Assembly: GCA_052168235.1 (NCBI GenBank)
Contig: JBQLZK010000087.1
Coordinates: 1-22,788 of the forward strand
Source of the DNA: Thainema sp.
GTDB taxonomy: Bacteria > Cyanobacteriota > Cyanobacteriia > Phormidesmidales > Phormidesmidaceae
Direction of reading: 5' to 3'
Length of the DNA: 22,788 nucleotides
The stretch's first letter is position 1; the number at the start of each line of letters is the position of its first letter. Below are positions 1 to 22,788 of this stretch, one piece after another. The position numbers and the translations under genes were made by a program. The notes below the pieces were generated by a model. It saw nothing but the letters and a program-made list of their open reading frames with translations. It was not told the origin of the DNA and searched no databases.

Positions 1-910
1 CCAGATGGATGTAGTGCCTGATTTCTTTTAGGTCAACACCCAGGAACAGCGATGGCCGCTTAGGGACGGGAATATCGTCAATCTCGTCTGCCAGCTTCCG
101 TAGCTCCCGATCGGGACGAGCCAGCGACAGGGATAGAAAACCATGCTCGTTGTCCGACATGGGCAGTTTGGGCAGGTGCAACGATGCCTGGACGATCGAC
201 GGGGTTCGGTCGATGGCTTCGGGTAGTTTCTTGGGATCTCGCATCTCCAGAATGAACTGGATAAACGATGGGCCTTTGAAACAGGTCACATAGTCGGCGT
301 AGTAATTCGCCTTGTGAATCGCCTTCAGCGTCGCCTGCAAAAGTCCATGCACGGTTGGATCGTCGGGTGGATTCGGTATCCGTGGCTCCGACGTATCGTT
401 TTCACGCGATACAGGTTGAGCGGGTAAGGCTTCCAGCTGTGGAGCACCCAGCGCTTTCAATTCAGCCACGTCAATGCCGAGAATGGCGGCGATTTCCTCA
501 TCACCCTTTTCTTCAGCTCGCAGGTTCTCCACCACTTGAGCAATCTTGAGCATTTCAGAACTGGCCAGCAGTTGCCGTTGGAGTTCTTCCTGCTCTCGAA
601 CGGCTCGCAGTCGCAGTTCATGATTGAGCTGGCGCAACAGTTCACGCTCATCTTTTTCGGCTGTTTTGCTGGTTTGGTATGCCTTACCGAAACCTGCGAT
701 CGCAATCATAATCCCTGCCATCTTTGACCAAGAATCCGGCGCGTAAATGGCGCTGATTTGGGCGCGGTTGGTGATGGCCCAGTGTGGGAGCCGTTGACCG
801 TTGGGGGTGAGTACCGTTGGATCGAGCCGTCCCCATGAGGCAATCAGCAGACCAAACACTCCAGCGGCTTGATAAATCAGGATAGATTGTCGGTGGATTG
901 AGAAGTCCAT
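1..910 (-). CDS. FtsK/SpoIIIE-family DNA translocase (TraB/TcpA-like), N-terminal part; runs off the window start
   Basis: Not in the ORF track; translated by hand. Open from ATG at 910 (alternative 931) to base 1. It reads MDFSIHRQSILIYQAAGVFGLLIASWG (hydrophobic), a second hydrophobic stretch, a coiled coil, then FtsK-alpha-like TCFKGPSFIQFILE...SLARPDRE...LFLGVDLKEIRHYIHL. Confidence 0.85.
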   Translation of the reverse strand, partial: MDFSIHRQSILIYQAAGVFGLLIASWGRLDPTVLTPNGQRLPHWAITNRAQISAIYAPDSWSKMAGIMIAIAGFGKAYQTSKTAEKDERELLRQLNHELRLRAVREQEELQRQLLASSEMLKIAQVVENLRAEEKGDEEIAAILGIDVAELKALGAPQLEALPAQPVSRENDTSEPRIPNPPDDPTVHGLLQATLKAIHKANYYADYVTCFKGPSFIQFILEMRDPKKLPEAIDRTPSIVQASLHLPKLPMSDNEHGFLSLSLARPDRELRKLADEIDDIPVPKRPSLFLGVDLKEIRHYIHL

Positions 911-1446
911 TGGTTCAGATACGCTTGCCATGCAGCGTCATAGGCTTGCTCGGAATTGGTCTGCTGCGATTCGACCTGGGATTGTTGCTGAGCTTTGGGC
1001 TGTCGAACGTTGAAGAACACTCGAAACAGGCCAGCACTCAATACAAACCCAATCGCAACGATGAAGAATTTCCAAATGGGGCTGCCCTGGTAATAGAACA
1101 GGCCCAGCAGTAAATCCCAACTGGCCAGCAGCGTGGCAATGACCACTCCAAAGGCTGTAATGCCGACCAACGTGAATAAGTTGGGATGACCTGCGATCGC
1201 AACGTAGAAACAGGCCAAAAGACCAGCCCCGGCAAGGATTCCATAGATAAAAGCGAAGTCAGGCAGGAGCCGAGCCAGGAACGTGAGAAACATCCAACTG
1301 CCGATCAGCAGACCAAACATTGAACCCGCTCGGTTGATCGTGTGGTAGTTCCAGGTGGGAACTTCAGGATGGGGCGTAGTTGCGATCGCAGATTCTTGCA
1401 GCGCTCGCAGGCGCTCTAATTCAGGATCGTGTTGCTGTGCATACAT
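877..1446 (-). CDS. Multi-pass membrane protein (~189 aa, about 4 TM segments) in the FtsK cluster
   Basis: Re-started at ATG 1446 (MYAQQHD), which has an AGGAG RBS at 1454-1458. Four hydrophobic segments; overlaps the FtsK start. Confidence 0.8.
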   Translation of the reverse strand: MYAQQHDPELERLRALQESAIATTPHPEVPTWNYHTINRAGSMFGLLIGSWMFLTFLARLLPDFAFIYGILAGAGLLACFYVAIAGHPNLFTLVGITAFGVVIATLLASWDLLLGLFYYQGSPIWKFFIVAIGFVLSAGLFRVFFNVRQPKAQQQSQVESQQTNSEQAYDAAWQAYLNQWTSQSTDNLS

Positions 1447-1456
1447 AAGCAATCTC

Positions 1457-1729
1457 CTAAAGCCGACGGCGGAGCGCGTTGATTTTTGCCTGGTAGCGAG
1501 CGGTGATTTGGTTTCGTTCTGATTGCCCCTGCTGTGCAATCGCACTTAGCTCAGATTCGGTTCGTGCAGCGGTTTGCTGTGATGATTTCAGGTAGTTGGC
1601 GCTTTGGGCGTTTGCTCGGTCTAAATAGCCATTTACCCGAGATGAACCTCTCTCAACACTTTGGGCCAAGCTGCGTTTCATGGATTCAAGCTGCGCTTGC
1701 AGGTGGGCAATCTCTTGGGATTTCTCCAT
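1457..1729 (-). CDS. 90-aa coiled-coil hypothetical protein, paralog of the upstream gene
   Basis: GGAGG RBS and tight operon spacing. Shares LSAIAxQGQxERxxxTxRYQxK with 1743..2411. Confidence 0.8.
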   Translation of the reverse strand: MEKSQEIAHLQAQLESMKRSLAQSVERGSSRVNGYLDRANAQSANYLKSSQQTAARTESELSAIAQQGQSERNQITARYQAKINALRRRL

Positions 1730-1742
1730 CGGTAAAGCCTCC

Positions 1743-2411
1743 TCAAGAAACCAGATTCAAGATGCGCTGGAATGGGCCTCTTGATCGCCCAGTCCCAGGC
1801 GTATAGTCATCGGCTCGGATGTAGCGCTTCAGTGCGATTTCTTCCTGCTTCTGCTGTTCCTTAGCAGCGGCTTTCTGCCGTGCATCGTCCAGCTTCATCT
1901 GGGTTTCCTTACCCATGTTGGTTCCCATCTGCTGAAGCTTACTGGCCTGCAACTGGCGGGCCTGTTGCGCTTTCAGTTGGTATCGGGTTGTCAGTGTGTC
2001 GCGTTCCATCTGGCCTTGTTCTGCGATCGCAGATAGGCCCAATTGAGTTGCGTGGGCAGTAGTTTGCAGATGTTGCATGTACTGGCCGGTTTGCAACTGG
2101 GCACGGCTGACCAGGTTATCGACGGCTTTGGCACCTTCAAGACCTTTAGCCAGCAGGTCGGTACGCAGCTCTTCAATCGTGACTTTGGACTTAATCACGT
2201 CCTCTGAGGCCGTCTTGTACTGTTTGGCCAGCACAACCTGCTGACGCAGATCTTTGGCCAGTTGGGACTGGGCGCGAACTTCGGACGGGGTAAGGCGACC
2301 CAGCTTGTTGATATCAACGCGAAATTCGTCATTGACGCGGGCGGCTCCATTAGACGAGATACCCGTTTGTCCAACGCGCCAATTCATTTGAGGGGGTGCG
2401 GCTGTTGCCAT
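1743..2411 (-). CDS. 222-aa Gln/Ala-rich coiled-coil protein, first gene of the leftward FtsK operon
   Basis: Long ORF with a GAGGA RBS and heptad-like composition. Confidence 0.8.
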   Translation of the reverse strand: MATAAPPQMNWRVGQTGISSNGAARVNDEFRVDINKLGRLTPSEVRAQSQLAKDLRQQVVLAKQYKTASEDVIKSKVTIEELRTDLLAKGLEGAKAVDNLVSRAQLQTGQYMQHLQTTAHATQLGLSAIAEQGQMERDTLTTRYQLKAQQARQLQASKLQQMGTNMGKETQMKLDDARQKAAAKEQQKQEEIALKRYIRADDYTPGTGRSRGPFQRILNLVS

Positions 2412-2583
2412 AAACTCAGTTCCTCATGTAGCGAATTAAGCAAAAGATGCAATGTTTGCAATCTCTGCTAGGATGTTAGCATATTTTTAGTAGCTGACAA
2501 GCTAATAATCAGTAGCTCAACAAAACGAAAAGCTGCAATCTAGCTACTAATCCGCGCAAATCCGTAGTATTAAAGGAGTGGTA
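2412..2583. promoter_or_regulatory. Divergent promoter region with AGTAGCT direct and inverted boxes (putative RHH operator)
   Basis: tagtagctga 2488-2497, cagtagctca 2510-2519 and inverted tagctacta 2541-2549 lie in an AT-rich gap between divergent genes. Confidence 0.5.
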
Positions 2584-2955
2584 ATGGTTTTGAAAGTGAG
2601 CAAACGGGTATTCCTCACACTTCCAGATGCGATCGCGGATGCGCTGGAGCGATGGGCTGAAAAAGATGGAGGTAAAGCAGCAACGCTGGCTGGATTCTTA
2701 GTGGAGCGCGAGGTTCGAGCTGCATTGAAAACCGGGGAAATTCCGCCAGAAACGCCGAACTACGAATCTATTCAGCAGTTGGTACTAGCAAATCACGATA
2801 AGCTTCTGGAATCTGGCAGGTTTTCGGATTCGCGGCTAAAAGAGCTCGAATCTGGGGATACCCCTTCAGAGGTTGAAATAGTACGCTTAGCGCTACTGCT
2901 GGGCTTATCCGAAGAATATGTGATGAATCTGCTACCCAGAAACAGTAAGAAGTGA
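2584..2955 (+). CDS. CopG/Arc-like ribbon-helix-helix regulator with a C-terminal helical (HTH-like) extension
   Basis: SKRVFLTLPDAIADALERWAEKDGGKAATLAGFLVE is a typical cyanobacterial RHH pattern. AAGGAG RBS at about 2573-2578. Confidence 0.75.
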   Translation: MVLKVSKRVFLTLPDAIADALERWAEKDGGKAATLAGFLVEREVRAALKTGEIPPETPNYESIQQLVLANHDKLLESGRFSDSRLKELESGDTPSEVEIVRLALLLGLSEEYVMNLLPRNSKK

Positions 2956-2968
2956 GGCGCGATCGCAG

Positions 2969-3550
2969 ATGAGCAACGGAGACACAGTTAAAGCTCAACC
3001 CGCAGCGCTACAAATCGGTGAGCTAGCCATTGAGGGGTATATGCTGCCCGATGGAAGTTACCGGATGTCGCAAACTCAGGTTGCCGAGTGCATTGGCTTG
3101 AGCGAAAGAAACGCCCGCGATTTTTTGCGCTCAAAAGCCGTCAAGTCTTTACTGGGAGAGGGTTATACGCCCGCGATTTCTCAGATAGAAGTTGAATCAG
3201 AAGCACAAACCAGAGGGCAAACCCGATTTAATGCACTGCCGCTAGAGGCTGTGTGTGCCTATTGGCAATGGCAGGCTTTCCGAGGGAACAAAACTGCTCT
3301 CGGTTTGTGCATGGCGTTGATGCTGGAATCTCTAGAGCGTCGCTTTGATGCAGCCTTCAACGTTGACCGCTCTGAAGCTGATTACAATCAGCGCGTAAGT
3401 GAACGGATAGAGCAACTAGAGCAGACTTTTGGTGATGCCTATGCCTTTGCCGACGATGCGGCAAAAGAACGTGATGAATTTCTCCGGCTGCTACAGGAGA
3501 ACGGCATTGACCCCTATGGCATCCCAGGTGAGGAGGAATCACAAAGTTGA
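2969..3550 (+). CDS. P63C/antirepressor-like DNA-binding protein with a C-terminal coiled coil
   Basis: N-terminal LQIGELAIEGYMLPDGSYRMSQTQVAECIG resembles the N-domain of P63C-associated phage proteins. Confidence 0.6.
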   Translation: MSNGDTVKAQPAALQIGELAIEGYMLPDGSYRMSQTQVAECIGLSERNARDFLRSKAVKSLLGEGYTPAISQIEVESEAQTRGQTRFNALPLEAVCAYWQWQAFRGNKTALGLCMALMLESLERRFDAAFNVDRSEADYNQRVSERIEQLEQTFGDAYAFADDAAKERDEFLRLLQENGIDPYGIPGEEESQS

Positions 3551-3940
3551 TGAAGCTTGCGAGTTGCGATCGCACCCCCAGGGATTTTGGGGTATTAGCG
3601 TAAAATAATCTCAATCGAGATTCTGGCCAAACCTAAACGCAACGAAAGGGGGCCAGCTAAAGTTTGACCAACCACTTCAGGAGGTGAATGACATGGGTGA
3701 GTAATAAGAATCAAATCAAGAAAGTCGAAAGCCCCAGTTGTGGGGACAACTGAGGCTCAAAAAGACTTTCGATTCAATTTATGGTTTCAAGCGGAACCTA
3801 ACGTGTGCTTTGGCGGGCCGACGTTAGGACTCCACAGAGTTGTGCGCCTTTTTGCGCTTCTGGCAATAAGAGTAACACAGGAACCATCCGAGTGGGCAAC
3901 GACATTCAGCGACCTGGAGCGTAATCCCGCAAGAAATTAA

Positions 3941-4170
3941 TCACAACATTGTGATCCAATCGTTTGGATCGTTGATAGTTCGCTGATAGTGAATTTTTTG
4001 AAAATAAATTAGCTAGTAGTTAATTTATCAACGCCAAACGCTGATTTATTGACAAGGATATAATGCCTGTCTATCAATCGCTTGACACATTCGCTTGACG
4101 CATTTTGCGAGCAACACATTGCCACACTTTTCCACACTTTTCCCCAAGCTTATTGAGTAAGAAATACTCA
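3941..4170. repeat. AT-rich region with tandem repeats and a DnaA box; candidate origin or control region
   Basis: TCACAA-ca-TTGTGA palindrome 3941-3954. 11-bp tandem tcg(t/c)tgatagt 3969-3990. 13-bp tandem tcgcttgac(a/g)cat 4078-4103. 10-bp tandem ccacactttt 4122-4141, which contains TTTTCCACA at 4128-4136. Confidence 0.55.
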
Positions 4171-4424
4171 AAGCGACTTTCTATCAGAAATTGCTGCGAT
4201 CGCTTAGCGTAGGAGTTTCGGAGATTTAGCCAATGGATTTGAATCAGATTTGATTCAGCTCAGCTCATAAAATTTCTGGTGCTGGGTTTACCGCTATTTT
4301 GAAAGTAGTTTTTTTTGCCAGACCTGTGCACAAAAACAAAAGTTGCACATATAATCGGGATAGGTGCGATCGCACTGTGTTCTGGAGGCGTAATGCCCAA
4401 AGGGGATGAGGTTATGCAGTATCC

Positions 4425-4637
4425 ATGCCCAAAACAAAACGAGCAATTGAACAAATGGCTAATCAATCTGAAGCGTTTGGAATCCGTGTCTCTCGTGAAT
4501 GCTGGACTGCATTAGCCAGCCTGCAATCGCAGCGGGGCGATATCCCGCGCAATCGGTTGATCAATGAAGTGCTAGCGCGTGGGCTGGAAACGTATCCCGA
4601 ACTAAAGCCTGATAAAGTGAAAGCCTCAGTCGGTTAG
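4425..4637 (+). CDS. Small RHH (CopG/Arc-like) protein upstream of rep; start may be 4455
   Basis: SEAFGIRVSRECWTALASLQSQRGDIPRNRLINEVLARGL has a strand-helix-helix pattern. Confidence 0.6.
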   Translation: MPKTKRAIEQMANQSEAFGIRVSRECWTALASLQSQRGDIPRNRLINEVLARGLETYPELKPDKVKASVG

Positions 4638-4676
4638 GTGGTGGTACACCTGATTGACTGAGGCTTTCGGTTTTTC
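4620..4676 (+). terminator. 21-bp RNA hairpin with a U-tract (terminator or attenuator upstream of rep)
   Basis: aaagcctcagtcggttaggtg pairs with cacctgattgactgaggcttt, with three G-U pairs valid only on the + strand. It is followed by cggtttttt. Confidence 0.7.
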
Positions 4677-4755
4677 CTGTACATCCTAAATCGCCATCTC
4701 GCCAAAGTTGATCGATTTAGGGCATTGGCACCGTTTTAACGGTGTGCACATATCT

Positions 4756-5247
4756 ATGTTAGACAATTTACCTTATGTGAGTCACCTGCGCGAGGGTGAT
4801 AGCTGTTTATCAGATCAGGATTTCTTAACTAGCAATTCTTGCCCTCATCATAGCAAAAATGCCCCCCCAGGGCATAGGGTAGCAACCCCTCAGCGGGTAA
4901 AGGATTGCACGGCATACCCCCCAGGGGGATTAAGCAAGCACTTCACAATTGCTGATTATCGACGCTTAGAGAAGATTGCTGCGCCTGAGCCTTTCGAGGG
5001 TTGGCTGAAGGTTTTTGAAGTGGCAGAGCTCGATCGCATTGGCGACCAGCGGCGATGGAAGCTGTCTGTCTGGTGCGAGTCTGAGGGCTGCTATCGGGTG
5101 ATTGCTGGCCAATTCTTCAAGCCGGAAATCGATTGGATCAAGGATAGGTATCGAGAAACTAGGGATAAAGGGCGGTTTGCCTTAGCGATTGAGGTGTGGC
5201 TCCAGCGTGCGATCGAAGTTTGCACCTCTCAGGAGGTGGCAGCATGA
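4756..5247 (+). CDS. Hypothetical protein translationally coupled to rep
   Basis: Its stop TGA overlaps the rep ATG (ATGA 5244-5247). The start is uncertain (4708 or 4756). Confidence 0.6.
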   Translation: MLDNLPYVSHLREGDSCLSDQDFLTSNSCPHHSKNAPPGHRVATPQRVKDCTAYPPGGLSKHFTIADYRRLEKIAAPEPFEGWLKVFEVAELDRIGDQRRWKLSVWCESEGCYRVIAGQFFKPEIDWIKDRYRETRDKGRFALAIEVWLQRAIEVCTSQEVAA

Positions 5248-8200
5248 GCGCGATAGCACCTCAACTGAACCAAGCATTAACTGGCCTCGATGCTTTTGAG
5301 GCGTTCTGCCAAGCCGTAGGCATCACTGAAGGGACTGAATTTCTGTGCGCCTACGGTGAGGAAAACAAGCTTACCCTGAAGGCTCGAAAGCTCGAAAAGG
5401 GCTTAGTTGCTTGGCAGGTATACAAGAAAAATAATTATCAAGGGCGGGGCTTTGGCAAGCTTTACCGATATGAGGATTTGCGGGAGCTGGCCAAAATCCA
5501 GAACCTATTCTTTATCCCAAACCTGACAACTAAGGGCAGATCAAACGCCTGCGTCGATACACCTGCTAGATATCTCTATGCCGAAATCGATGATTTGGCG
5601 ATTGCTGAGCAACGGCAAAAATGGGGCGATTTCTACCAGCGGTCTGGACTGAAACCACTGGCTCAGGTTCACACAGGCAACAAATCCGACCATCACTATA
5701 TCGGCGTTGAACCCGATTCTATTGAGGAGTGGGGATACCTCCAGAAGTGGCTTTGTGCCTTGATGGATGCTGACCCAGCACCGACCAGCCCACACCAGCC
5801 GATGCGGATGGCTGGTTTCCCTCGGATCAAAAACGATACTGAGCGGGAAGTATCGTTGCTAGAAAGCAATCCCGCCACTTATTACACCAGCGAGGAAATT
5901 AGAGCAGCCTTTGAGAAGGCTTGGCCATATTCAGAACCGTTTTCTCTGGAGCGATGGGAAAAATATCGGAGTGCGGTTGCGATCGCAACCAATCCAAACA
6001 TTGATAACAGCCGCATGGCTCCAATGTCTGAGCCTGCTGACGCTTTCAGGCTATCGGATGGCGAACTATTCCCCAAAGGCAAAACTAAGGCCAAGAATCG
6101 GCAGAAAGGCGAGAGTACAGCCACATACACCAGTGGCCAAAAATCTGACGGCGGCTTTCTGGATGAGTTAATCAACCCTCTGCTAGATCTACCTTTAGAA
6201 TCTCAATATTCACTTGGGAACTACGATCATCAGTTTCAAGCTAAAGCACCCGGTTTAGTAGGCTGTAGCCCCTGGAGTCCGACAAACGAAAGCGGAGAAT
6301 CATTCAAGGTTTTCACCAGCAACGGCGGTTGGTTTTGCCATGCCTCACAGCAAGGCGGCGGTTTGTTGCAATACCTGCAACTGCAATGGATCGGCAAGCT
6401 TTGGGGCGAAATGGAGCCGGACGAGCGGAAAACGTTTGTCCGTAAGCTTGAAAAAAATAGCTATTGGACAGCATTCGCCAACCAATCAGGGATTGAACTG
6501 GACTATAGCCAGAGTGAATCACACTGGCGATCGCAGATTGAATCAGCACTTGCTGCACAGCAGATGCTATCTGGCCCCGTAGAGGTTGGCACTTTTCCAG
6601 AGTTGGAGATTGGGCCTAATCCTCAGCTTTTCGTACTCGACGGGCAAAAAGGCACTCGCAAAACGAGCAAATCCATTAAATCCCTGATTGCAGATTGCAA
6701 GAAAAAGGGACTGCGAGCTGTCGTATTCTCGCCGACTCGGCTACTCAATAAATCCGAAAAACGCACTCTGGGACTCCCGACGATTGACGAGGTGAAGCTA
6801 TCTCAGCGGGATAAGGTGCCGTTTGTTATCGCTTGCCCTGAATCGGCTCATAAGCTTTCTTTGCTTGATTTTGACCTGGTGATTATCGATGAAGCGAATG
6901 AGGTTGTCGAGCGAATCTTAGAGGGCAATTTAGGCAATCAGCCAGCCAATTCACGGCGGCAATTCAAGCGGCTTCTGAACGCGGCAAAAACAGTCGCGAT
7001 CGCGAATGACATGCTCTATAAATCGACCCTGAATTACGTTCAGCGGGTGGGTCGATTCAGTGCCGATGAAGTCACCGTCATTCGGCGGCGGCGGCCACAA
7101 ACGAAGATGAAGATCAATCTTTACGTGGACAACGGCGCAAGCGCTGAGCGGTGGGACGGTACAGATTCAGATCAGCCGAAGCAAAACACGGCTTTCCTGG
7201 ATTGGACACATAACTTAATGCGCAGTTTCAGTGATAAGTACGAATCGGTCAGTATCCCTTGCGGCTCGCAGAAGCGGGCGAGAGAGCTCGATAGGCTCCT
7301 CTCTCCCCACGCAGGCCCATGGTCGAACGTTCGCTGCATCGACGGGCAATATACCCCTAAGCCAGTCAAGGAAGCACTCGCAGCAGATCCGGACGGATGG
7401 CTGAAGCGAGAGCGGATTGGGGCGATGATTTTCACGCCAACTTTCAACAGTGGTGTGAGCTTTGAATCTGACCACTTTAGGCGGCAGTTCGAGTGTCAAA
7501 CCGCCTTTGAGACGGCTTCAGCCGCATCACAGCGAGGGGAACGGGTACGCGATGCCATTTGGGGCAAGCGCATCCGTGAACGGCACATTTACACCTCTCG
7601 CAGGGGATTGGCCAAGTATCCCGATACCGGCATTTTCTTTCCCGAATATTGGGCGAAATTTCTCAAGGCCGACCTAGCGGAGCGATCGCACAAAATCGAA
7701 GAAGAAACCGCGTCTACCCTTGGGGCTGCGGAAATTTTCAAAGGTGTTCGGGATATTAAGCTCGACGATTTCAGCGACATTCAGGAATTACCCGAATTTC
7801 TAGCCATTCGCGCCAGAGAAATCCATTTCAAAATTGAAGCCCTTTCGCGAGAATGGACTTCAAACGGTTGGGAGATTTGCTCTGGCTGCTTCGCGACGGA
7901 AGATGAGCGGGATGAGATCCGCAAGCGATACCAACGAGTACAGCAGGGCATTATCGAGCAAAAATCTCGGATTGGGGCAAAGGCTAAGCCTGCTGCGGTG
8001 TGGCAGGGTGTAGAGCCAGAAGGCCCGATCCATGCCGCGAAAATTCACAAGGCCCAGCTTTTTGATAAGCTGGGCGGTTTTAAGCGGCTGTGGGAAGCGA
8101 AATGGCTCGAAGCTTGGGATGTTGCGTCAGGCAATAAAAGCCTTGATCAAATCCAATTGCGGGCACTGCTGCAAACCGCGCAAACCGCACCCGACGAATT

Positions 8201-10600: not shown

Positions 10601-11269
10601 ATGGAAATCTTCTACAAAGAATGGAGCGGGCCTGAATCGAACACCCTCGAAAAAGCCTGGGATACTACCCAGCCCGTACCGGGGCGCTGGTATCTCGTTC
10701 GCACTGTGCTCTGGTCGAGTAACCTTGAGAACATGCCAGTGTATTTCGAACCGCATGATGATGGTAACAGCGAAGGTTTGCACATTCATTTTGACGTGCG
10801 GTTCATGAGTCTTTTGCAATGCCAAGACGCGGCTGGGCTAAAGCCTGAATACCGCTATGAACTCGATTTCGATCCGGTCAGGCAACAGAATCTAATTCAA
10901 GCAAATATTCGGTATTGGGCGTGGGGAATTCGCTCGTTACTCCTCAATCCTGATGATTCTTTGTTAATCGAGTGGCGGCCTGTGCAATGCCGATTATCGA
11001 GGTTTCCTGAAAGGTGGCGTTACCGCTGGTTCGGCGACGTGGACTATGGGTTAGAGGAAGATGCAAAAATTCAAAACGGGATTTGCCCCCATAGAGGCTT
11101 TGATCTATCTAGCGTCAAACCAGATTCTAGGGGAGTGATTGAATGCCCAATGCATGGCGCTACGTTCTGCCCCCTCACTGGAAAATACAAAAAGGTGCCG
11201 CAATCAAAACTGCGTCGATACTTTGATGTCGAGACTGGAGATCCGTATGGGTATCAGCCTCGGGGGTAG
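10601..11269 (+). CDS. Rieske [2Fe-2S] motif protein 1 with an unrecognised N-terminal His/Asp domain
   Basis: CPHRGFDLSSVKPDSRGVIECPMHGATF matches CxH-x17-CxxH. Confidence 0.8.
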   Translation: MEIFYKEWSGPESNTLEKAWDTTQPVPGRWYLVRTVLWSSNLENMPVYFEPHDDGNSEGLHIHFDVRFMSLLQCQDAAGLKPEYRYELDFDPVRQQNLIQANIRYWAWGIRSLLLNPDDSLLIEWRPVQCRLSRFPERWRYRWFGDVDYGLEEDAKIQNGICPHRGFDLSSVKPDSRGVIECPMHGATFCPLTGKYKKVPQSKLRRYFDVETGDPYGYQPRG

Positions 11270-11276
11270 TAAATTA

Positions 11277-11837
11277 ATGGAATCAACAATCCTGGAATAC
11301 GACGGGCTACAACACAACCTCAAGAAAATTGATGAGGTAAAGCGCCCTGTGTCTGGGTCTCTTTATCTAGTGCCCTGCCTGCTGGATAACTGGCAGTTTT
11401 GGCCTGTTATCCCCCATATTCATACCGATGACTTCAATGATCTGACGCGAGAAATCGGCTCCCACATACACTACGACACCCGTTTTTTAAGCTGGGAACA
11501 GGTTTGCAGCTTGCTGGACGATCGGCAAGATATGAGCAACGAGGAAGCTCACCAGTGGTATTGGTCGCAGGCGATGGCGCTTGTCCATGCCGCATCAAAA
11601 CAAATCAGGCTACAGTATCGCCCCGTCCGCTGCGTCTGGTCTGATTTCCCCGAGCGTCGCGCGGCTTATACAGCAGAAGAATTGAAGCGGTTGTACGCCA
11701 ATGCGAGAATGTGCGATCGCAAGTGCCCACATCACCAATTTGATTTGAGCAACATCAGGCCCAACCGTAAAGGGCTGATTGAATGCCCGCTGCATGGTTT
11801 GACGTTCGATCAGCAGACGGGTAAGGTTGTGCCGTAG
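11277..11837 (+). CDS. Rieske [2Fe-2S] motif protein 2, tandem paralog
   Basis: Start ATG 11277, 7 bp after the upstream stop. Contains CPHHQFDLSNIRPNRKGLIECPLHGLTF. Confidence 0.8.
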   Translation: MESTILEYDGLQHNLKKIDEVKRPVSGSLYLVPCLLDNWQFWPVIPHIHTDDFNDLTREIGSHIHYDTRFLSWEQVCSLLDDRQDMSNEEAHQWYWSQAMALVHAASKQIRLQYRPVRCVWSDFPERRAAYTAEELKRLYANARMCDRKCPHHQFDLSNIRPNRKGLIECPLHGLTFDQQTGKVVP

Positions 11838-13712: not shown

Positions 13713-14213
13713 TCACCCCGTTCCGATTGTTTCTTCAATATCGCTCATCGTAAGCATTAGTGTTAGTGGGGCTAAAGGGGATGGCACAAAGCCAAACTGC
13801 GTATAGAAGTCCACAAGATCTTCTGAAATTGCATGAACCAGCAATGCTCTTATTCCTGCGATCCTGCTAGCTTCAAATGTTTTCAGGATGGCGTTACGTA
13901 CCATTCCTCGCCCGATTCCTTTTCCGCTCCAGTCTTTATCAACTGCTAATCGCCCTAATACCATTACGGGAATAGGATCAGGCGAATTGCGCTGCTGTTG
14001 TTTTGGCAGCAGCGCCCTTTGTATAGAACCAGCTGCCAATGCGTAATATCCAATAACTGTGTTATCTACGCAGACAACATAAGTTCGAGAGTTGTACTTA
14101 TTTTCATTTGCTAAAGCCCTCTCTTTCAACCATCGATCTAGTGATTCAACTCCAGAGTTGAAAGCCTCTGTGTTGTGTTGGTTTTCTAGTTTTTGTGGTG
14201 CCTGAATCTTCAA
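13713..14213 (-). CDS. GNAT acetyltransferase toxin (TacT/AtaT family)
   Basis: FNSGVESLDRWLK, PIPVMVLGRLAVDKDWSGKGIG (acetyl-CoA-binding motif) and ALLVHAI...FYTQFGF. Confidence 0.92.
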   Translation of the reverse strand: MKIQAPQKLENQHNTEAFNSGVESLDRWLKERALANENKYNSRTYVVCVDNTVIGYYALAAGSIQRALLPKQQQRNSPDPIPVMVLGRLAVDKDWSGKGIGRGMVRNAILKTFEASRIAGIRALLVHAISEDLVDFYTQFGFVPSPLAPLTLMLTMSDIEETIGTG

Positions 14214-14239
14214 AGAGCTTACCTACCGCTATTTGCCAC

Positions 14240-14536
14240 TTATTCCCAAGGGGATGGTGTATCTAGCAATGCTTTTAATTGTGGTAAAGCCCTAGGAGGT
14301 GCATCAAGTACACTGACAAATTCATCCCACTGAGATTCATCAACAAAAAAGTTGCTCTTATCCAGCAAGATATCCTCAGCTCTAGAACAAGCCGCTTCCA
14401 GCACAAAATCTGAAAACGTTTTGTTCTCCAAAGCTGCGGCTCTGTTGATTAATGCTGTCTGTCTTTTTTGAGCCCGAATATTGATTCGATCGTCTTTCGT
14501 GCTGTTAGCACTTCTCTTGTTCGCTGTATGTACCAT
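14240..14536 (-). CDS. DUF1778 RHH antitoxin (TacA/AtaR family)
   Basis: KDDRINIRA...INRAAALENKTFSDFVLEAA...WDEFVSVLDAPP...L...PSPWE; directly upstream of the GNAT gene. Confidence 0.92.
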   Translation of the reverse strand: MVHTANKRSANSTKDDRINIRAQKRQTALINRAAALENKTFSDFVLEAACSRAEDILLDKSNFFVDESQWDEFVSVLDAPPRALPQLKALLDTPSPWE

Positions 14537-14640: not shown

Positions 14641-14696
14641 TATTGTAATCATTGCAGTAATGCAGTATTTAATGCAGTAGTTCAGTAATTACTGCA
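14641..14696. repeat. Centromere-like AATGCAGT repeats upstream of parA
   Basis: attgcagt, aatgcagt, aatgcagt, agttcagt and an inverted actgcaa. Confidence 0.75.
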
Positions 14697-14700
14697 AACT

Positions 14701-15348
14701 ATGACCACTATCGGCATCGTCAATCAGAAAGGCGGTTGCAGCAAATCGACTACAGCAGTTCATTTTGCCGTGTGGCTTCACTCGCAGGGGCATTCTGTTG
14801 CAGTTATTGATGCTGACGCCCAGCGCTCTAGCTCCATCTGGATTGAAGCCTTGGAAGGGATAGACATCCCGATCCACGTCATTCAATCCGCTGACGAACT
14901 GCTGGACGAAATACCCAACATTGCAGCCGAGCATGACTATTGCATCGTCGATGGGCCTGCTGGATTGTCGGAAGCAACCAGGGCAATTCTGTTTCGTGCA
15001 GATTTAGCCGTCATTCCCTGCCAACCCAGCGGCGTTGACCTTCGCAGCGCAGCCGATGCGGTCAAGTTGGTGAAGCAGGCCCAATCAGTTCGCAATGGGC
15101 CTCCAGATGCACTGGTCTTTCTCAGCAGGGCAGTGAAGGGGACAAAGCTCAAAGATGAAGCGATCGCACTGCTCAGTAAATCGGGCGTTCCAATCATGCA
15201 GGCCGTCATCCATCAGCGGCAAATTGTGGCAGATACCTTTGGCCAGCGAGCAACGGTATTCGATCTTGCAGGCCGTCCTGCAAGAGATTCCGAGCGGGAA
15301 TTCATCGCACTGTTCAACGAGATTATGGAGGCGCTATCGGATGAGTAA
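14701..15348 (+). CDS. parA: Type Ib ParA partition ATPase
   Basis: Deviant Walker A NQKGGCSKST, IDADAQ and Walker B IVDGP; no N-terminal HTH. Confidence 0.95.
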   Translation: MTTIGIVNQKGGCSKSTTAVHFAVWLHSQGHSVAVIDADAQRSSSIWIEALEGIDIPIHVIQSADELLDEIPNIAAEHDYCIVDGPAGLSEATRAILFRADLAVIPCQPSGVDLRSAADAVKLVKQAQSVRNGPPDALVFLSRAVKGTKLKDEAIALLSKSGVPIMQAVIHQRQIVADTFGQRATVFDLAGRPARDSEREFIALFNEIMEALSDE

Positions 15349-15658
15349 GCGTAGATCGATGGCAGATGATGATGCAGCGGCGTTTGTGTTTGGACAGGAC
15401 AGAGATCGCGTTACAGAACCATCACCACAACCTAAGCCAGAATCAAAGCCTCAACCCTCCAAACCAACCGCTAAGAAAAGTAGAGCAATCGATAAACTTA
15501 TGAAAACAGCAGAACAGGAAAGACAGGTACGCATCACAGTTGATTTGGCTGCGTCGCAGCATCAGGAGCTGACGCTAGCATCGGCAAAGCTTGGCAAGAG
15601 TAAAGCCGAAATCATCAGAGCATTAGTTGATGACTTCCTTTCTGAATTAAATGATTGA
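15341..15658 (+). CDS. ParG/CopG-like RHH centromere-binding protein
   Basis: ATG 15341 overlaps the parA end. Disordered N-terminus and C-terminal VRITVDL...HQELTLASAKLGKSKAEIIRALV. Confidence 0.85.
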   Translation: MSKRRSMADDDAAAFVFGQDRDRVTEPSPQPKPESKPQPSKPTAKKSRAIDKLMKTAEQERQVRITVDLAASQHQELTLASAKLGKSKAEIIRALVDDFLSELND

Positions 15659-15691
15659 TGCAGTAATGCAGTAATGACTTACTGCATTACT
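15657..15691. repeat. Centromere-like AATGCAGT repeats downstream of the partition operon
   Basis: gatgcagt, aatgcagt, aatg and an inverted ttactgcattac. Confidence 0.75.
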
Positions 15692-19284: not shown

Positions 19285-19491
19285 CTATAGAAGCCGCAAT
19301 GGCGAGCCAAGAAGTGACAACGGAAGCCGAGCGATAATCTGCGATCGCAACTGGGCACACTGAAGCCAAATGTATTTCCATTCGCTCGCCTGCTCTCTAC
19401 CTTTGAGGCGAGCTTTTTTATTAAGGGCAGCCAATAGAAAAGCCCCAGCAGTTGCCAGGGCTGAACCCGAGTCGTTCTTTAATACGCTCAT
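19285..19491 (-). CDS. Possible small hypothetical protein
   Basis: 68-aa ORF with weak support; it lies beyond a terminator. Confidence 0.35.
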   Translation of the reverse strand: MSVLKNDSGSALATAGAFLLAALNKKARLKGREQASEWKYIWLQCAQLRSQIIARLPLSLLGSPLRLL

Positions 19492-19571: not shown

Positions 19572-19595
19572 AAAAACCCCGGTTGCGTACCGGGG
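19572..19595 (-). terminator. Rho-independent terminator closing the leftward membrane-protein cluster
   Basis: Minus strand reads CCCCGG-tacgcaa-CCGGGG-TTTTT. Confidence 0.7.
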
Positions 19596-19609
19596 CATCA
19601 TCAAGATTT

Positions 19610-19984
19610 CTAGCCACAACTGGGAGATTTTCCGAAGCAGGGCGTTGCGTCTTGCTCGTACCAGGGCGTTGCCTTTTCGTTTGGTGCAAGCGGGTCTGGA
19701 TTGATAGCCTTTGGGTCAGGTGGCAGCACGGCGCAAGGGGGAGGTACGATGCAGGTTTTCCAGGTGCTGGAGTCATCCGGATCGACGGTGGGTTCTTCCT
19801 GCTCTGGCTCCGTCGGCGTCGGTGAGGGTTTGGGAACTTCAATCACTGGAGTTGCAGCAATTCCCGATTCTGCGATCGCAACGGGTTTCCTCCGCTGCGA
19901 CATAATCAGCAGGAGTAGGAGAGCAGTTCCTAGTGCCAACCATGCCAGCAGCGGTAAATCTTTCTGCTGAATCCTAACGGCCAT
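19610..19984 (-). CDS. Single-TM protein with a Pro-rich linker and four C-terminal cysteines
   Basis: TM segment LPLLAWLALGTALLLLLIM; overlaps the upstream stop. Confidence 0.7.
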   Translation of the reverse strand: MAVRIQQKDLPLLAWLALGTALLLLLIMSQRRKPVAIAESGIAATPVIEVPKPSPTPTEPEQEEPTVDPDDSSTWKTCIVPPPCAVLPPDPKAINPDPLAPNEKATPWYEQDATPCFGKSPSCG

Positions 19985-20381
19985 AGGTCACACCATCTTT
20001 AAATCCCTGATACTCAGCTTCAAGGCGCTGATTCTCCAGCGCTTGCTGTTCTGCCGTCCATCGTGCCCGCTCCTGCTTCAGCAGAGCATCAACCTGGGAT
20101 TGAGTTAGGGTTGGCTCTTGCGGCTTCGGTTTGAATGACTGAATGAGCAGGAGTAGCGCTACAAAGAAGCAGGTTGCTGCGATCGCAGCTCTCAACGTAT
20201 CCCAGTTGATACCAGATTGCGGAACGGTAAACACTCCGACCTGATCATGCGGCTCAACCAGTTCAGCTTGAATCGGCTGTGTCTGTCGCGCTAACGGTTG
20301 CGCTGCAACAACCGGGGTAGAGGTGGGGAGCTGTCGCTGCTGGTCGTGGGGAAGATTGATGTTGATATTGATTGGGTTCAT
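19974..20381 (-). CDS. Single-TM protein with a C-terminal coiled coil
   Basis: GAGG RBS. TM segment AAIAATCFFVALLLLI. Confidence 0.75.
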   Translation of the reverse strand: MNPINININLPHDQQRQLPTSTPVVAAQPLARQTQPIQAELVEPHDQVGVFTVPQSGINWDTLRAAIAATCFFVALLLLIQSFKPKPQEPTLTQSQVDALLKQERARWTAEQQALENQRLEAEYQGFKDGVTYGR

Positions 20382-20445
20382 AATGACCTCGTCTCTTAAG
20401 GGAGATAGGGCAGGGGCTACTTTTGCGGGTTCCCCTGCCTGCTAA

Positions 20446-20518: not shown

Positions 20519-20905
20519 TCAATGGTTTACGGCGGCCAGCCACATGCCAGCCATTAATGCGGGGATAAGCAATAGGGCCGAATAGCCACTCATGCCAACT
20601 GCGATCGCACATCCGACCGGGATAATCGCAACCAGCAGTCCATAGAACAGGGTGCGACCGATGAACCGCAACCGCTCGTCGAGTCGGACAACTGCCACGT
20701 ACTCACCCAAATATCGGCTCATGGCTTCATCACTGGCCTGCGTCAGGCAAAAGCCCTTGTAGTTTTGGTCTAAGCGCTGTGAATAGCTGGACTCAGCCAC
20801 ATCAAACTGAAGGTCTGCCATGTGCTGCCCAATTGCGATCGCAAGAGTTGGATCGAACTCGTCCGGGATTTGCTCAATGTCGTTATTCATCGGCTTCACC
20901 CTCAT
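20519..20905 (-). CDS. Two-TM membrane protein; start may be 20890
   Basis: C-terminal hydrophobic hairpin; overlaps the upstream gene. Confidence 0.75.
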   Translation of the reverse strand: MRVKPMNNDIEQIPDEFDPTLAIAIGQHMADLQFDVAESSYSQRLDQNYKGFCLTQASDEAMSRYLGEYVAVVRLDERLRFIGRTLFYGLLVAIIPVGCAIAVGMSGYSALLLIPALMAGMWLAAVNH

Positions 20906-21278
20906 CTGGAGCGGTAATGTAGGCGCTGCGGATACTGCCAGCCTTAACCGCCATTCCGTTAAACAGCGTTGCCATCATGTAATTGGTGCGCTTCACCAAC
21001 TGCTGGCCACGTTCCTTAAACCGTTTCTCCATTCCGTGTTCAGCCGCATCAAAGGCAGCGTCTACCAGTTCCGTTCCACCCTGGACGAGCTGAGCGGGTT
21101 CAAACTGCTCAACGTCTACATTCACGTTGGGGTTCTCAGTCTGGACGGCTGGAGGGCGATAGGGTTTAGATGAAGCCTGCGATCGCGCCATCTTGCCACC
21201 GGCTGACGTATCGACGGAACGAGCTAGGCTGGCCTGCTGGTCTGCGGTCTTAGCGGGCTTGTTGTTGTTCGTGGTCAT
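20883..21278 (-). CDS. Hypothetical protein
   Basis: AGGAG RBS; 131 aa. Confidence 0.75.
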   Translation of the reverse strand: MTTNNNKPAKTADQQASLARSVDTSAGGKMARSQASSKPYRPPAVQTENPNVNVDVEQFEPAQLVQGGTELVDAAFDAAEHGMEKRFKERGQQLVKRTNYMMATLFNGMAVKAGSIRSAYITAPDEGEADE

Positions 21279-21335: not shown

Positions 21336-21758
21336 CTATGCAACGGTGCTTGATACGTTGATGGTTTCTTGCTGGATACGGCGCTGATTGCGCTTGATGA
21401 GCATTTCCTCAATCCCGGCGTTACAGTCTTCCTGCGAGCCTCCAGCCAGTGCTACGACTGCCCAGATTTGCTCGTCAGTGTTCTCATTGATGAATTCCTG
21501 AATCTCACTCGTCAGGATTTGGTGACGACCTCTGGCGTACTGCACATGCCGATACATGGCGACACAGTACAGCGTCCGCACCTGTGTTTTATTCAGCAGG
21601 GAAAACAGGGGACGGTCAGGCCATAAAGTCTTGCAGTCCCTGCTGATTTGGTCTTTGGATGCTCCCAGCATTTCGATGACTTCTTTCTGCCGAAATCCGT
21701 CACACATATCCAAAAGAGCAGGAACGCGGGTTGTTGCTGGTCGTCTGCGTCGTGGCAT
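21336..21758 (-). CDS. HTH-containing putative DNA-binding protein
   Basis: Re-started at ATG 21758 (GGAG RBS). FRQKEVIEMLGASKDQISRDCKTL has an HTH pattern. Confidence 0.65.
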   Translation of the reverse strand: MPRRRRPATTRVPALLDMCDGFRQKEVIEMLGASKDQISRDCKTLWPDRPLFSLLNKTQVRTLYCVAMYRHVQYARGRHQILTSEIQEFINENTDEQIWAVVALAGGSQEDCNAGIEEMLIKRNQRRIQQETINVSSTVA

Positions 21759-21779
21759 GAGATGTAGTCTCCATAGGGG

Positions 21780-21975
21780 GTTTGCAAGTTTTGAAGGTTT
21801 TTCGCAACGTTGCATTTTTTGGCGGCAAAATTGCAACGTTTCCGAACAAAAGCATGAGATAGTAACGATTCGAGGGGGTGACTTGCAATCTAGAATGATG
21901 CTGAGATAGCCCAAAACGGTTGTGATGACTGGGTTTTAGCGGTTAAATCGCAAGTCAGAGTTGCTATAGCAACTC
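21780..21975. repeat. GCAACGTT/TTGCAA repeats and a perfect 18-bp palindrome directly downstream of the FtsK gene
   Basis: gcaacgtt at about 21804 and 21833, several ttgcaa, and gagttgctatagcaactc at 21958-21975. Confidence 0.6.
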
Positions 21976-22788
21976 AATCGGAAAAATTGCCGCTGTCGCC
22001 AGAATCGGTACTAGGGGGTGAATTTTCAGGATGGTCTTGCATGGTTAGCTCCAGAAATTCCTGCTGGGCGGCTGGCCAGCCTGCATCACCTTCAGCGACG
22101 TTCCACACGCGGCTGATGATGTAGGGGTTACTCTTGCCCTTGCTGCGTAACTCGAAGATGCGATCGCGTTTCTGGTCGCGGGTGAGTTTGGCAATCTTGG
22201 GAAAGCACCACTCTTTCAGGTCACTGATGGAGGTGTCATAGGCTTGCAGTCGCACCGGCTCTTCTCCACCTCGACGGGCCAGCATATCGCCTTTACCGAG
22301 TAACCGCTCACAGCCTGCCTGCTGAATGACCAGCTCAGAATCCTTATCTCGCTGGAGCAACAAGCCGATCCGATGGCCGATTTTGGCATCGACCTGACGG
22401 TGAATTGTCTTGCGATCGGGGGCTTGAGTGCAGAACAGAATCAGCCATCCGAACGTGGCAGCGACAGACATAACATCCGATAGGCGCTTCACCTGTGTGG
22501 GTTTGCCGTCGATGACCATTGACTCCTTTCGCATATCGGGAAAGCCAATGTGAGACTCGTCGAGAATCCACACCTTGTAGTCCGCTTTGGTTACGCCTTC
22601 GAGATGGTTAAAGTCCTCGATGTTGGACACACCTTGATAGGCGAATAGGCTGCGACGGTTTTCGATATCCTGCTCAACCCACTGGAGCTGGAGTTCTGCA
22701 TCCTCTTCTGAATGCCCGACCAGACGGTTAGCCGTCGATGGCCATTCCGCCAGGTAGGGGGAATTCTTGAGCGGGTTCAGTTCCGTAC
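21974..22788 (-). CDS. FtsK/SpoIIIE-family translocase, C-terminal part; enters from the window end
   Basis: Frame is open to 22788. It reads TELNPLKNSPYL...DIENRRSLF...GVSNIEDFN, Walker B VWILDE, LFCTQAP, GCERLLGKGDML and RLQ, followed by an HTH-like tail. Confidence 0.9.
   Translation of the reverse strand, partial: TELNPLKNSPYLAEWPSTANRLVGHSEEDAELQLQWVEQDIENRRSLFAYQGVSNIEDFNHLEGVTKADYKVWILDESHIGFPDMRKESMVIDGKPTQVKRLSDVMSVAATFGWLILFCTQAPDRKTIHRQVDAKIGHRIGLLLQRDKDSELVIQQAGCERLLGKGDMLARRGGEEPVRLQAYDTSISDLKEWCFPKIAKLTRDQKRDRIFELRSKGKSNPYIISRVWNVAEGDAGWPAAQQEFLELTMQDHPENSPPSTDSGDSGNFSD

Follow-up and report, generated by a model that had tools for sequence, protein, structure and literature searches.

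Can a cyanobacterial plasmid pass DNA from cell to cell with a single FtsK-like motor, in the absence of a relaxase and a type IV secretion system (T4SS)? The question is raised by contig JBQLZK010000087.1 from Thainema sp. (hereafter the window, meaning the whole 22,788-bp stretch that was analysed; GC 44-55%), on which nine leftward, co-oriented genes, one of them for an FtsK-like ATPase, form one block from position 2411 down to base 1 that resumes from 22788 down to 19610. An earlier note, made from the sequence alone, likened this block to the TraB/Spd modules with which Streptomyces plasmids move double-stranded DNA (dsDNA). Here we examine the ATPase, its partners and its replicon, weigh the rival explanations beside the evidence that bears on them, and compare the operon with known systems. 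The ATPase belongs to the FtsK family by sequence and fold in its full-length relatives and is accompanied by a conserved set of membrane and coiled-coil genes, and the operon is best read as a dsDNA transfer module of TraB/Spd-like type, a reading that is plausible rather than probable.

A single-domain FtsK-type ATPase

The ATPase of the window lies in two pieces at opposite ends of the contig, and its family is read here from full-length relatives. P0001 and P0002, which are 92% and 78% identical to the C-terminal part of the window's ATPase (identity over that query), match Pfam FtsK_SpoIIIE (PF01580) with 48.1 and 48.9 bits, respectively (1.3e-12 and 7.4e-13; cut-off 24). Sequence matches of the ATPase in the PDB are FtsK motors only, and phmmer aligns its residues 205-531 to residues 62-400 of FtsK. 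The AlphaFold2 model of P0001, built from an 11-sequence alignment (mean pLDDT 82.4), begins with an N-terminal helix (residues 4-25) and a small beta region. A helix of great length (60-132) comes next, then two short ones; a linker that is disordered (156-184) leads to the compact alpha/beta domain (185-535), which is followed by a helical tail (538-609). The top Foldseek match of this model is the FtsK motor of E. coli and P. aeruginosa (2ius, E 2.3e-24, TMt 0.76, about 398 columns covering alpha and beta), ranked ahead of TcpA of pCW3 (7e-15), EccC/EssC (2e-10 and weaker) and HerA. Moreover, residues G321, K322, D427, E428, Q472 and R490, which correspond to Walker A, Walker B, the glutamine and the arginine finger, are the same in all 11 aligned sequences from the clade and its neighbours.

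By hydropathy, the N-terminus contains two hydrophobic segments, which are moderate in P0001 and stand out clearly in P0003, P0005, P0007 and P0008. The membrane-anchored FtsK ATPase of the earlier note stands as to family and fold, while the anchor is deduced from hydropathy: the two moderately hydrophobic segments would tether the protein to the membrane. The tail had been described as HTH-like (HTH, helix-turn-helix), a label that we keep as putative in view of a conserved pattern common to P0001-P0004 and P0006. Modelled alone from a 10-row alignment, this helical stretch of 88 amino acids (aa; 21977-22240) forms a confident three-helix bundle (pLDDT 72.9, core 86-91), but it matches no Pfam family, HTH included, and no known fold significantly (see below).

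Matches outside the FtsK motors are those of a generic FtsK domain only: P0001 matches SspH models of PADLOC (2.5e-15) and FtsK/SpoIIIE-like families of PHROGs (4e-33), and the best NCBIfam match of the ATPase is the EccCb domain (9e-7), at 27.5 bits against a cut-off of 346. Such matches could be taken to mean that the operon is a defence or conflict system, or an EssC/EccC-type protein secretion system, in which an FtsK-like ATPase works with membrane partners. FtsK-like domains do occur in defence proteins, the plasmid also encodes small helical proteins, and a Crocosphaera plasmid match is a giant FtsK-domain protein of 1841 aa beside a cysteine desulfurase, which we rejected as an unrelated system. 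The SspH and EccC matches, however, are at the level of the domain, with none of the partner genes of those systems present; the ATPase has one ATPase domain, with no FHA or additional ATPase domains according to Pfam in the relatives and the model; EccC/EssC rank well below FtsK structurally and over fewer columns; and the catalytic motifs are kept, unlike those of inactive FtsK effector domains (PMC7159879). We consider a role in defence or secretion quite improbable.

The missing P-loop at the contig junction

Across the junction 22788|1 the reading frame is open and yields a protein of 581 aa. In P0001 (628 aa) and P0002 (615 aa), however, '...RHYIHL' is followed by 48 residues before 'TELNPL...' begins, against a single codon in the window. 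By blastn, the related locus L002 (9,783 bp) runs parallel to the window on either side of this point and has 154 bases there (L002 6464-6617) against 13 in the window, so that 141 bp are missing. These amount to 47 codons in frame and include the P-loop 'GGLPRVAGKT' (L002 about nt 6510); the Walker A codons are thus absent from the window and present in L002. The picture of about ten leftward genes wrapping around the junction accordingly needs amending: the co-oriented block is there, with nine genes, but the two ends do not abut.

The public record gives the ATPase pieces as two separate partial proteins of 310 and 270 aa, and for this reason an assembly gap is favoured over a true deletion. 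The gap is most likely an artefact of assembly or end trimming (141 is presumably also the largest default MEGAHIT k-mer), a genuine in-frame loss of the P-loop that left the ATPase dead being less likely, and the window is probably a nearly complete circular plasmid. Because the missing 141 bp hold the P-loop, the C-terminal piece in the window stays below the FtsK_SpoIIIE cut-off (21.8 bits against 24) and the N-terminal piece has no Pfam match.

Rarity and phylogeny of the ATPase

An HMMER scan of 1.84 billion representatives returned 5106 proteins at E<=1e-3, 188 at <=1e-10 and 3 at <=1e-30. Among 185,579 species represented by one genome each, a close relative of the ATPase was found in L002 only, and a search for related loci returned one true relative, L002, together with one Streptomyces plasmid.

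Motor-domain trees were built from 45 representative matches out of the top 55, a short Corynebacterium row being left out, and from references comprising pIJ101 Tra, four further actinobacterial plasmid Tra or FtsK-like proteins, the FtsK-like protein of pSTRVI01, pDYM4.3k, B. cereus pBCA2, TcpA and TcpB of pCW3, FtsK of E. coli and Listeria, and the Crocosphaera SspH-like protein. In the careful tree (58 rows, 356 columns), the window ATPase and P0002 fall within an 11-row clade (95/92) with P0003, P0005-P0009, P0012, P0017 and P0019. Tra proteins of small actinobacterial plasmids form another clade (97/99), made up of Bifidobacterium pB21a, Nocardia pYS1, S. stoeckheimensis p1 and Streptomyces NBC_00080, the last with a divergent GntR gene and a DUF2637 neighbour, and canonical FtsK lies inside a 38-row group (89/92). 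The best maximum-likelihood tree joins the window clade to the small-plasmid Tra clade as its sister (58/91.5). TraB-like references are scattered over the tree, which has many long branches and drew warnings for pIJ101 Tra, pDYM4.3k and TcpB, and TcpA is placed elsewhere than the window clade. Furthermore, 'GGxPGxGK[ST]' and '[FI]DGK' are common to the window clade and the small-plasmid Tra proteins, whereas FtsK and TcpA-type proteins have 'AGxTGSGKS' with 'DPK' or similar. These features hint at kinship between the ATPase and actinobacterial plasmid transfer ATPases, and the predicted transfer system of the operon may share ancestry with the Tra of small actinobacterial plasmids.

The FtsK-like genes on large plasmids of filamentous cyanobacteria (pCC7120beta of Nostoc PCC 7120, a plasmid of Pseudanabaena PCC 7367, and others), which were found with P0012, were rejected as the same module because they share 23% identity with P0001 and have no neighbour resembling the window genes. 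The Pseudanabaena protein has a canonical P-loop and DPK. On pCC7120beta (161920-180909), the FtsK-like gene is part of a long run of co-oriented genes that includes one for an M23 peptidase and many small uncharacterised ones.

The rank of TcpA as the second-best structural match (E 7e-15) speaks for another reading, in which the ATPase would be a TcpA/ConQ-like type IV coupling protein (T4CP) for the conjugation or mobilisation of single-stranded DNA, served by a helper T4SS encoded elsewhere, such as one of mating-pair formation type C (MPF-C), and by a divergent relaxase. Two N-terminal transmembrane (TM) segments followed by an FtsK-like domain are a common T4CP architecture. The divergent ribbon-helix-helix (RHH) gene next to the operon could be a relaxosome accessory, and many open reading frames (ORFs) of the plasmid match no family. 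Nevertheless, phmmer with the motor domain finds FtsK and not TcpA or TcpB, the tree places TcpA apart, none of the 38 ORFs scanned matches a relaxase family, and the 193-aa gene that follows the RHH gene belongs to a widespread family that is not relaxase-like. MPF-C systems do occur in cyanobacteria (PMC3548315, PMC8600333), but TcpA-type T4CPs co-occur with VirB4 (PMC3548315), which is missing here. A coupling protein is, on balance, an unlikely identity for this ATPase, though a rival to be reckoned with.

Conserved partners without named relatives

Conservation in L002 extends beyond the ATPase. The two loci are colinear from window position 2396 across the junction to 19988, and seven of the nine operon genes are conserved (Table 1). 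Since the ratios of nonsynonymous to synonymous substitution (dN/dS) are 0.04-0.13, the conserved operon genes are real and under strong purifying selection. The 90-aa paralogue and the 124-aa gene were not found in L002, and the former is therefore taken as a variable part of the operon. In addition, relatives of the 222-aa coiled-coil-type (CC) protein form eight clusters with 64-93% identity, on contigs of 37,084, 18,431 and 17,997 bases; the ATPase relatives P0001, P0164 and P0002 come from contigs of those same three sizes, which suggests that the two genes co-occur in three further elements. The synteny asked about in the earlier note is thus found in L002, but the large plasmids of filamentous cyanobacteria mentioned above share no neighbours with the window.

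The two coiled-coil proteins had been called paralogues, and BLASTP agrees (35% identity over 79 aa, E 1e-13). The CC protein and the 131-aa protein each lack a match in Pfam, NCBIfam, PHROGs and PADLOC. The protein described as having four TM segments (4-TM) shows 4-5 hydrophobic segments, consistent with about four TM helices, and its first TM region is weakly similar to the N-terminus of the ATPase (E 0.007). Its gene most likely starts at 1446 and not at 1545, because the L002 orthologue begins at the equivalent position and the GTG ORF that reaches 1545 overlaps the previous gene. Complex prediction with the N-terminus of the ATPase (residues 1-135) and the 4-TM protein gave a score of 0.10 against a mark of 0.32, which speaks neither for nor against binding. 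When the CC and 4-TM proteins were compared with the ESM Atlas, all scores were below 0.9 and gave no lead.

Several small TM proteins were rightly recognised at the outset: by hydropathy, the 128-aa protein has a hairpin at its C-terminus, and the 135-aa and 124-aa proteins have one segment each. The HTH protein is a more qualified case. An HTH-like stretch can be read off the sequence pattern of the 192-aa ORF, where an HTH is accordingly putative, but Pfam matches are weak and sub-threshold; as the ORF is conserved only from residue 29 on, its true start is probably internal.

Operon layout and control region

The operon genes are tightly spaced: several are separated by 10-13 bp or overlap by 11-55 bp. 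Downstream of the last gene, the terminator-like hairpin has eight pairs, six of them GC, and the tail TTTTCATTGG; the 68-aa ORF that lies past it is doubtful. A further GC-rich hairpin, GGCAGGGG...CCCCTGCC, without a T tail, occupies 20405-20445 (-), within the 137 bp that separate the 128-aa gene from the 135-aa gene, and may be a signal for RNA processing or attenuation within the operon.

At the upstream end, the divergent RHH regulator is present as had been proposed (Table 1), with an additional weak HTH_19 match in Pfam; its L002 orthologue is 57% identical over 51 aa. The intervening control region holds a promoter-like site for the leftward operon at 2500-2473 (-), a consensus match only, in a window whose count of such sites is not above that of shuffles. 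It also holds 'TGCAA' direct repeats at about 2446-2475, spaced by about 9 bp and kept in L002, which are the predicted operator of the RHH repressor. In L002, an inserted IS630-like transposase pair (3249-4279) comes between the first operon gene and the RHH gene and so parts the operon from its presumed operator.

Table 1. Features of the window, with the amino acid identity and dN/dS of operon genes relative to their L002 orthologues
Feature	Position	Strand	Basis or remark	Identity with L002	dN/dS
222-aa CC protein, first operon gene	1743-2411	-	ORF	92%	0.069
90-aa paralogue of the central part of the CC protein	1457-1729	-	BLASTP		
189-aa polytopic membrane (4-TM) protein	877-1446	-	hydropathy and start of L002 orthologue	84% (start 1446); 75% by tblastn from the 222-aa GTG ORF	0.094
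FtsK-like ATPase, N-terminal part	1-931 (ORF 2-931)	-	two hydrophobic segments, long helix, linker, start of motor; ends at window edge just before the P-loop	95-96%	0.065
FtsK-like ATPase, C-terminal part	21974-22788 (ORF 21974-22786)	-	remainder of motor, Walker B 'DE', tail	95-96%	0.048
192-aa ORF with HTH-like stretch	21336-21914	-	sequence pattern	61% over 164 aa	not computable, synonymous sites saturated
131-aa soluble protein	20883-21278	-	ORF, without family match	80%	0.043
128-aa protein with C-terminal hydrophobic hairpin	20519-20905	-	hydropathy; 23-bp overlap with preceding gene	90%	0.078
135-aa single-pass membrane protein, charged helical C-terminus	19974-20381	-	hydropathy	85%	0.127
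124-aa protein, N-terminal TM/signal anchor, Pro-/Cys-rich tail	19610-19984	-	hydropathy; 11-bp overlap with preceding gene		
Terminator-like hairpin with T run, directly after last gene	19576-19596	-	consensus match only		
68-aa ORF	19285-19491		past terminator-like hairpin		
Divergent control region	2412-2577		promoter-like site, TGCAA direct repeats, AGTAGCT/AGCTACT repeats		
Divergent regulator, 125 aa, N-terminal RHH	2578-2955	+	Pfam RHH_5 1.2e-8, above cut-off		
193-aa protein, next gene after RHH regulator	2969-3550		phrog_32599 match 2e-12		
Rep, 1282 aa	5196-9044		NCBIfam CyRepA1 3.4e-22, below family cut-off		
parA	14701-15348		Pfam		
parG-like	15155-15658		Pfam		

Replicon, host and plasmid upkeep

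The replicon is a plasmid of cyanobacterial origin, as had been stated. The palindromic octamer GCGATCGC, which we take to be HIP1, a cyanobacterial hallmark, occurs at 37 sites against 0.56 expected (for example at 696, 1193, 2023, 19341 and 22160) and marks the replicon as cyanobacterial. In a tblastn search of PLSDB, 12 of 12 matches of Rep were cyanobacterial plasmids. Residues 122-212 of Rep correspond to an AEP primase-polymerase stretch (PDB 6zp9, 5.4e-5) and residues 480-831 to a CyRepA1-like helicase region, so that Rep is, by its predicted domains, an AEP primase with a CyRepA1 helicase and not a relaxase. Neither the whole window (megablast) nor the N-terminal part of the ATPase (tblastn) has a match in PLSDB, and Rfam and tRNA scans of the window returned nothing.

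One member of the 90%-identity cluster of the ATPase comes from a metagenome-assembled genome of Thainema sp., a genus of the Leptolyngbyaceae, which are thin filamentous cyanobacteria. The suggested bias towards filamentous hosts finds no backing beyond this, Thainema being the one source name obtained.

Several other features of the plasmid stand apart from the operon. A strong 20-pair hairpin (4621-4666) lies upstream of a 179-aa ORF (4708-5247) that precedes the Rep gene. The 193-aa protein encoded next to the RHH regulator has 623 relatives at E<=1e-3 and represents a cyanobacterial family, mostly with 55-72% identity among the 120 listed, which one source calls a "KilA-N DNA-binding protein" and which is far commoner than the operon and not relaxase-like. 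Two neighbouring proteins of 222 aa (10601-11269, +) and 232 aa (11139-11837, +) have a Rieske [2Fe-2S] C-terminus (5e-10 and 9e-7) and N-terminal parts that look alike. A TacA-like antitoxin gene (Pfam 4.6e-23) precedes a GNAT acetyltransferase gene at 13713-14536 (-), an order that, going by these assignments, is that of a TacAT-type toxin-antitoxin pair. Additionally, TGCAGTAATGCAGTA occurs three times (two copies exact) at 14653-14687 and 15659-15673, on either side of the parA and parG-like genes, and these copies are likely partition sites.

With such genes nearby, the operon might itself serve plasmid maintenance. The pump would then act in the host's own septa, as FtsK, SpoIIIE and SftA do, beside the ParA and ParG-like proteins and with no cell-to-cell transfer, and would clear or distribute plasmid copies or resolve trapped multimers in a polyploid filamentous host. 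The plasmid does have other upkeep genes (ParA, the ParG-like gene with its flanking repeats, and the TacA/GNAT pair), the closest sequence and structure matches of the ATPase are chromosomal FtsK motors, a grouping of its clade with canonical FtsK is not rejected by the approximately unbiased (AU) test, and SpdA2 of pIJ101 is reported to affect segregational stability (PMC4447253). Against maintenance, no recombinase or dif-like partner was recognised by Pfam in 38 ORFs and no FtsK gamma-like domain was detected, and six or more dedicated, conserved accessory genes with a repressor would exceed such a role. The host is, besides, expected to possess its own FtsK. We regard maintenance as an unlikely function, though one to be taken seriously; even if segregation were the function, the operon would define a rare conserved set of membrane proteins working with a DNA pump.

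Possible transfer without a relaxase

In agreement with the earlier note, no relaxase, VirB4 or pilus family, and likewise no VirD4 or peptidoglycan-hydrolase family, was recognised in the 38 ORFs (Pfam, E<=0.01) or in 32 proteins (NCBIfam). Nor did a PHROG scan of 20 proteins reveal any virion family, such as capsid, terminase or portal. This last result bears on the idea of a virus-like or vesicle-related element, or the remnant of one, in which an FtsK-HerA-type ATPase would load plasmid DNA into vesicles or particles with the help of small membrane proteins. Many small membrane proteins without a family, the place of P0001 in FtsK/SpoIIIE-like PHROG families and the PHROG match of the 193-aa neighbour would fit this idea, which we nonetheless find far-fetched, given also that the ATPase is an FtsK-type motor with a hydrophobic N-terminus and an alpha domain and not a small packaging ATPase.

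We return to the TraB/Spd-like transfer module. The ATPase would be a membrane-anchored, single-domain FtsK-family motor made of two N-terminal hydrophobic helices, a long stalk helix, an alpha+beta ATPase and a conserved three-helix tail, and it is probably a hexameric dsDNA pump. Its conserved partners (the protein with about four TM helices, the coiled-coil proteins and three or four small membrane proteins) would keep the pump at the cell-cell interface. Unprocessed plasmid dsDNA could then be moved between filament neighbours or touching filaments, without a relaxase or T4SS. Control of the operon would fall to the divergent RHH protein, as a repressor that acts at the TGCAA repeats.

Several observations weigh against this reading. 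The function is a prediction made from the genes. The support for the sister grouping with small-plasmid Tra proteins is weak, and a forced grouping of the window clade with canonical FtsK, at a cost of 12 log-likelihood units, is not rejected by the AU test (p-AU 0.253); the phylogeny called for in the earlier note thus gives the actinobacterial affinity in the best tree but leaves the FtsK grouping standing. In BLASTP, P0001 aligns with the TraB-like protein of Streptomyces NBC_00080 around the P-loop only (E 0.003). A fold search of the tail against the PDB yields no match at E<=0.001 (best E 2.1), hence no significant HTH or FtsK-gamma similarity; the weak hits, at E 2.1 and above, include assorted winged HTH and HTH domains, with FtsK gamma not among them. 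The copy in the window would have no P-loop if the 141-bp gap were real and not an artefact. The accessory proteins match no named proteins in Pfam, NCBIfam, PHROGs, PADLOC or, for the CC and 4-TM proteins, the ESM Atlas; the 4-TM protein aligns with pIJ101 SpdB at E 3.8 and with the Streptomyces DUF2637 protein not at all. Synteny is seen among close relatives only (at least 64% identity). No outer-membrane or peptidoglycan-cutting component was recognised, though cyanobacteria are diderm. Finally, a search of the window for clt-like direct repeats found neither a significant cluster of 6- to 8-mers nor an over-represented polar 8-mer, a result that leaves room for a divergent or degenerate site. 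The sole local 8-mer cluster, GGCCTGTT, present four times within the 4-TM gene and kept in L002, was rejected as clt because it matches Gly-Leu-Phe/Leu codons and its total counts are not significant.

Published surveys give this reading its context. According to a 2012 survey, TraB homologues are confined to Actinobacteria and TcpA homologues to Firmicutes (PMC3548315). A 2021 survey of 424 cyanobacterial plasmids scored 88% as likely immobile for lack of the relaxase/VirB4/VirD4 set; it looked for relaxase, VirB4 and VirD4 only, and the words FtsK and TraB do not occur in it (PMC8600333). In a 2025 review, the dsDNA system of Streptomyces and the MPF-C type of cyanobacteria are mentioned apart from each other (PMC12282955), and a 2026 paper gives a list of 'minimal FtsK-type motor units' that names Gram-positives, Mycoplasma, Thermococcus and Pseudomonas but no cyanobacteria (PMC13492992). 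A literature search on cyanobacteria or plasmids with FtsK or TraB, in which subscription journals were mostly outside coverage, found no description of such a cyanobacterial module.

It is possible, if doubtful, that the operon represents the first relaxase-free, FtsK-driven system for dsDNA conjugation or intra-filament spreading outside Actinobacteria, one that acts across a diderm envelope or septal junctions with accessory proteins that have no known homologues. Were the transfer reading true, simple FtsK-type dsDNA conjugation would extend to a diderm phylum, some cyanobacterial plasmids now scored as immobile would have a candidate route of spread, and 7-9 genes would be at hand as a compact, testable kit with which DNA could be moved from one cyanobacterial cell to another.

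Comparison with known systems

Among known systems, the FtsK/SpoIIIE septal translocases provide the best sequence and structure match of the ATPase, with the same alpha+beta motor, Walker A and B motifs, arginine and glutamine. Unlike E. coli FtsK, with its 1329 aa and four N-terminal hydrophobic segments, the ATPase here has about 620-630 aa and two such segments. It also differs from this group in having no detected gamma domain, in being plasmid-borne within an operon of its own, and in its separate 11-row clade with an altered P-loop context.

TcpA-type systems (pCW3, Tn916, ICEBs1) share a membrane-anchored FtsK-like ATPase carried on a mobile element, and they provide the second-best fold match. 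However, they have a VirB4-like TcpF, the relaxase TcpM and a peptidoglycan hydrolase adjoining TcpA, none of which is found here, and phmmer detects no direct sequence match between them and the ATPase. The type VII proteins EssC and EccC are set apart by two or three tandem ATPase domains with FHA/DUF domains, in contrast to the single domain and the lack of partner families here.

Similar in concept are the pELF linear plasmids of Enterococcus, where a single operon combines an FtsK/VirD4-type motor with a variable set of integral membrane proteins and for which a nickase homologue is not reported (PMC13492992). The resemblance is one of concept: pELF also needs a second ATPase, TraC, and the rhomboid-like TraG, and its TraD lacks TM helices (PMC13492992), whereas the operon here has one ATPase with its own hydrophobic N-terminus.

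The Streptomyces TraB/Spd systems of pSVH1 and pIJ101 are the nearest in layout. The key translocase of pSVH1 is TraB, whose C-terminus recognises the 8-bp repeats of clt; SpdB2 forms oligomers and combines four TM segments with a coiled-coil domain, translation of the spd genes is coupled, and TraR, a GntR repressor, stands in a Kil-Kor relation (PMC4447253). In pIJ101, a divergent korA faces the operon tra-spdA-spdB-orf-kilB. There are also differences. The cyanobacterial host is diderm, and the coiled-coil and 4-TM genes precede the ATPase gene. The repressor is of the RHH type where theirs is GntR, which counts against the likeness although its position is the same. The accessory proteins show no detectable SpdB/DUF2637 similarity, no 8-bp clt repeats were found, and the tail matches nothing, whereas that of pIJ101 Tra has a MarR-like match. 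Because neither Spd homology nor a GntR regulator nor clt repeats were detected, we do not count the module among the TraB/Spd family, and the analogy drawn in the earlier note holds for the layout, the FtsK-type motor and the motif variants. In both, a single plasmid-borne motor of the FtsK type has its membrane part at the N-terminus and a helical tail at the C-terminus, and both surround it with overlapping genes for small membrane and coiled-coil proteins, including one of about four TM helices, under a divergent repressor and with neither relaxase nor T4SS. In this arrangement, the cyanobacterial module may work as TraB/Spd does.

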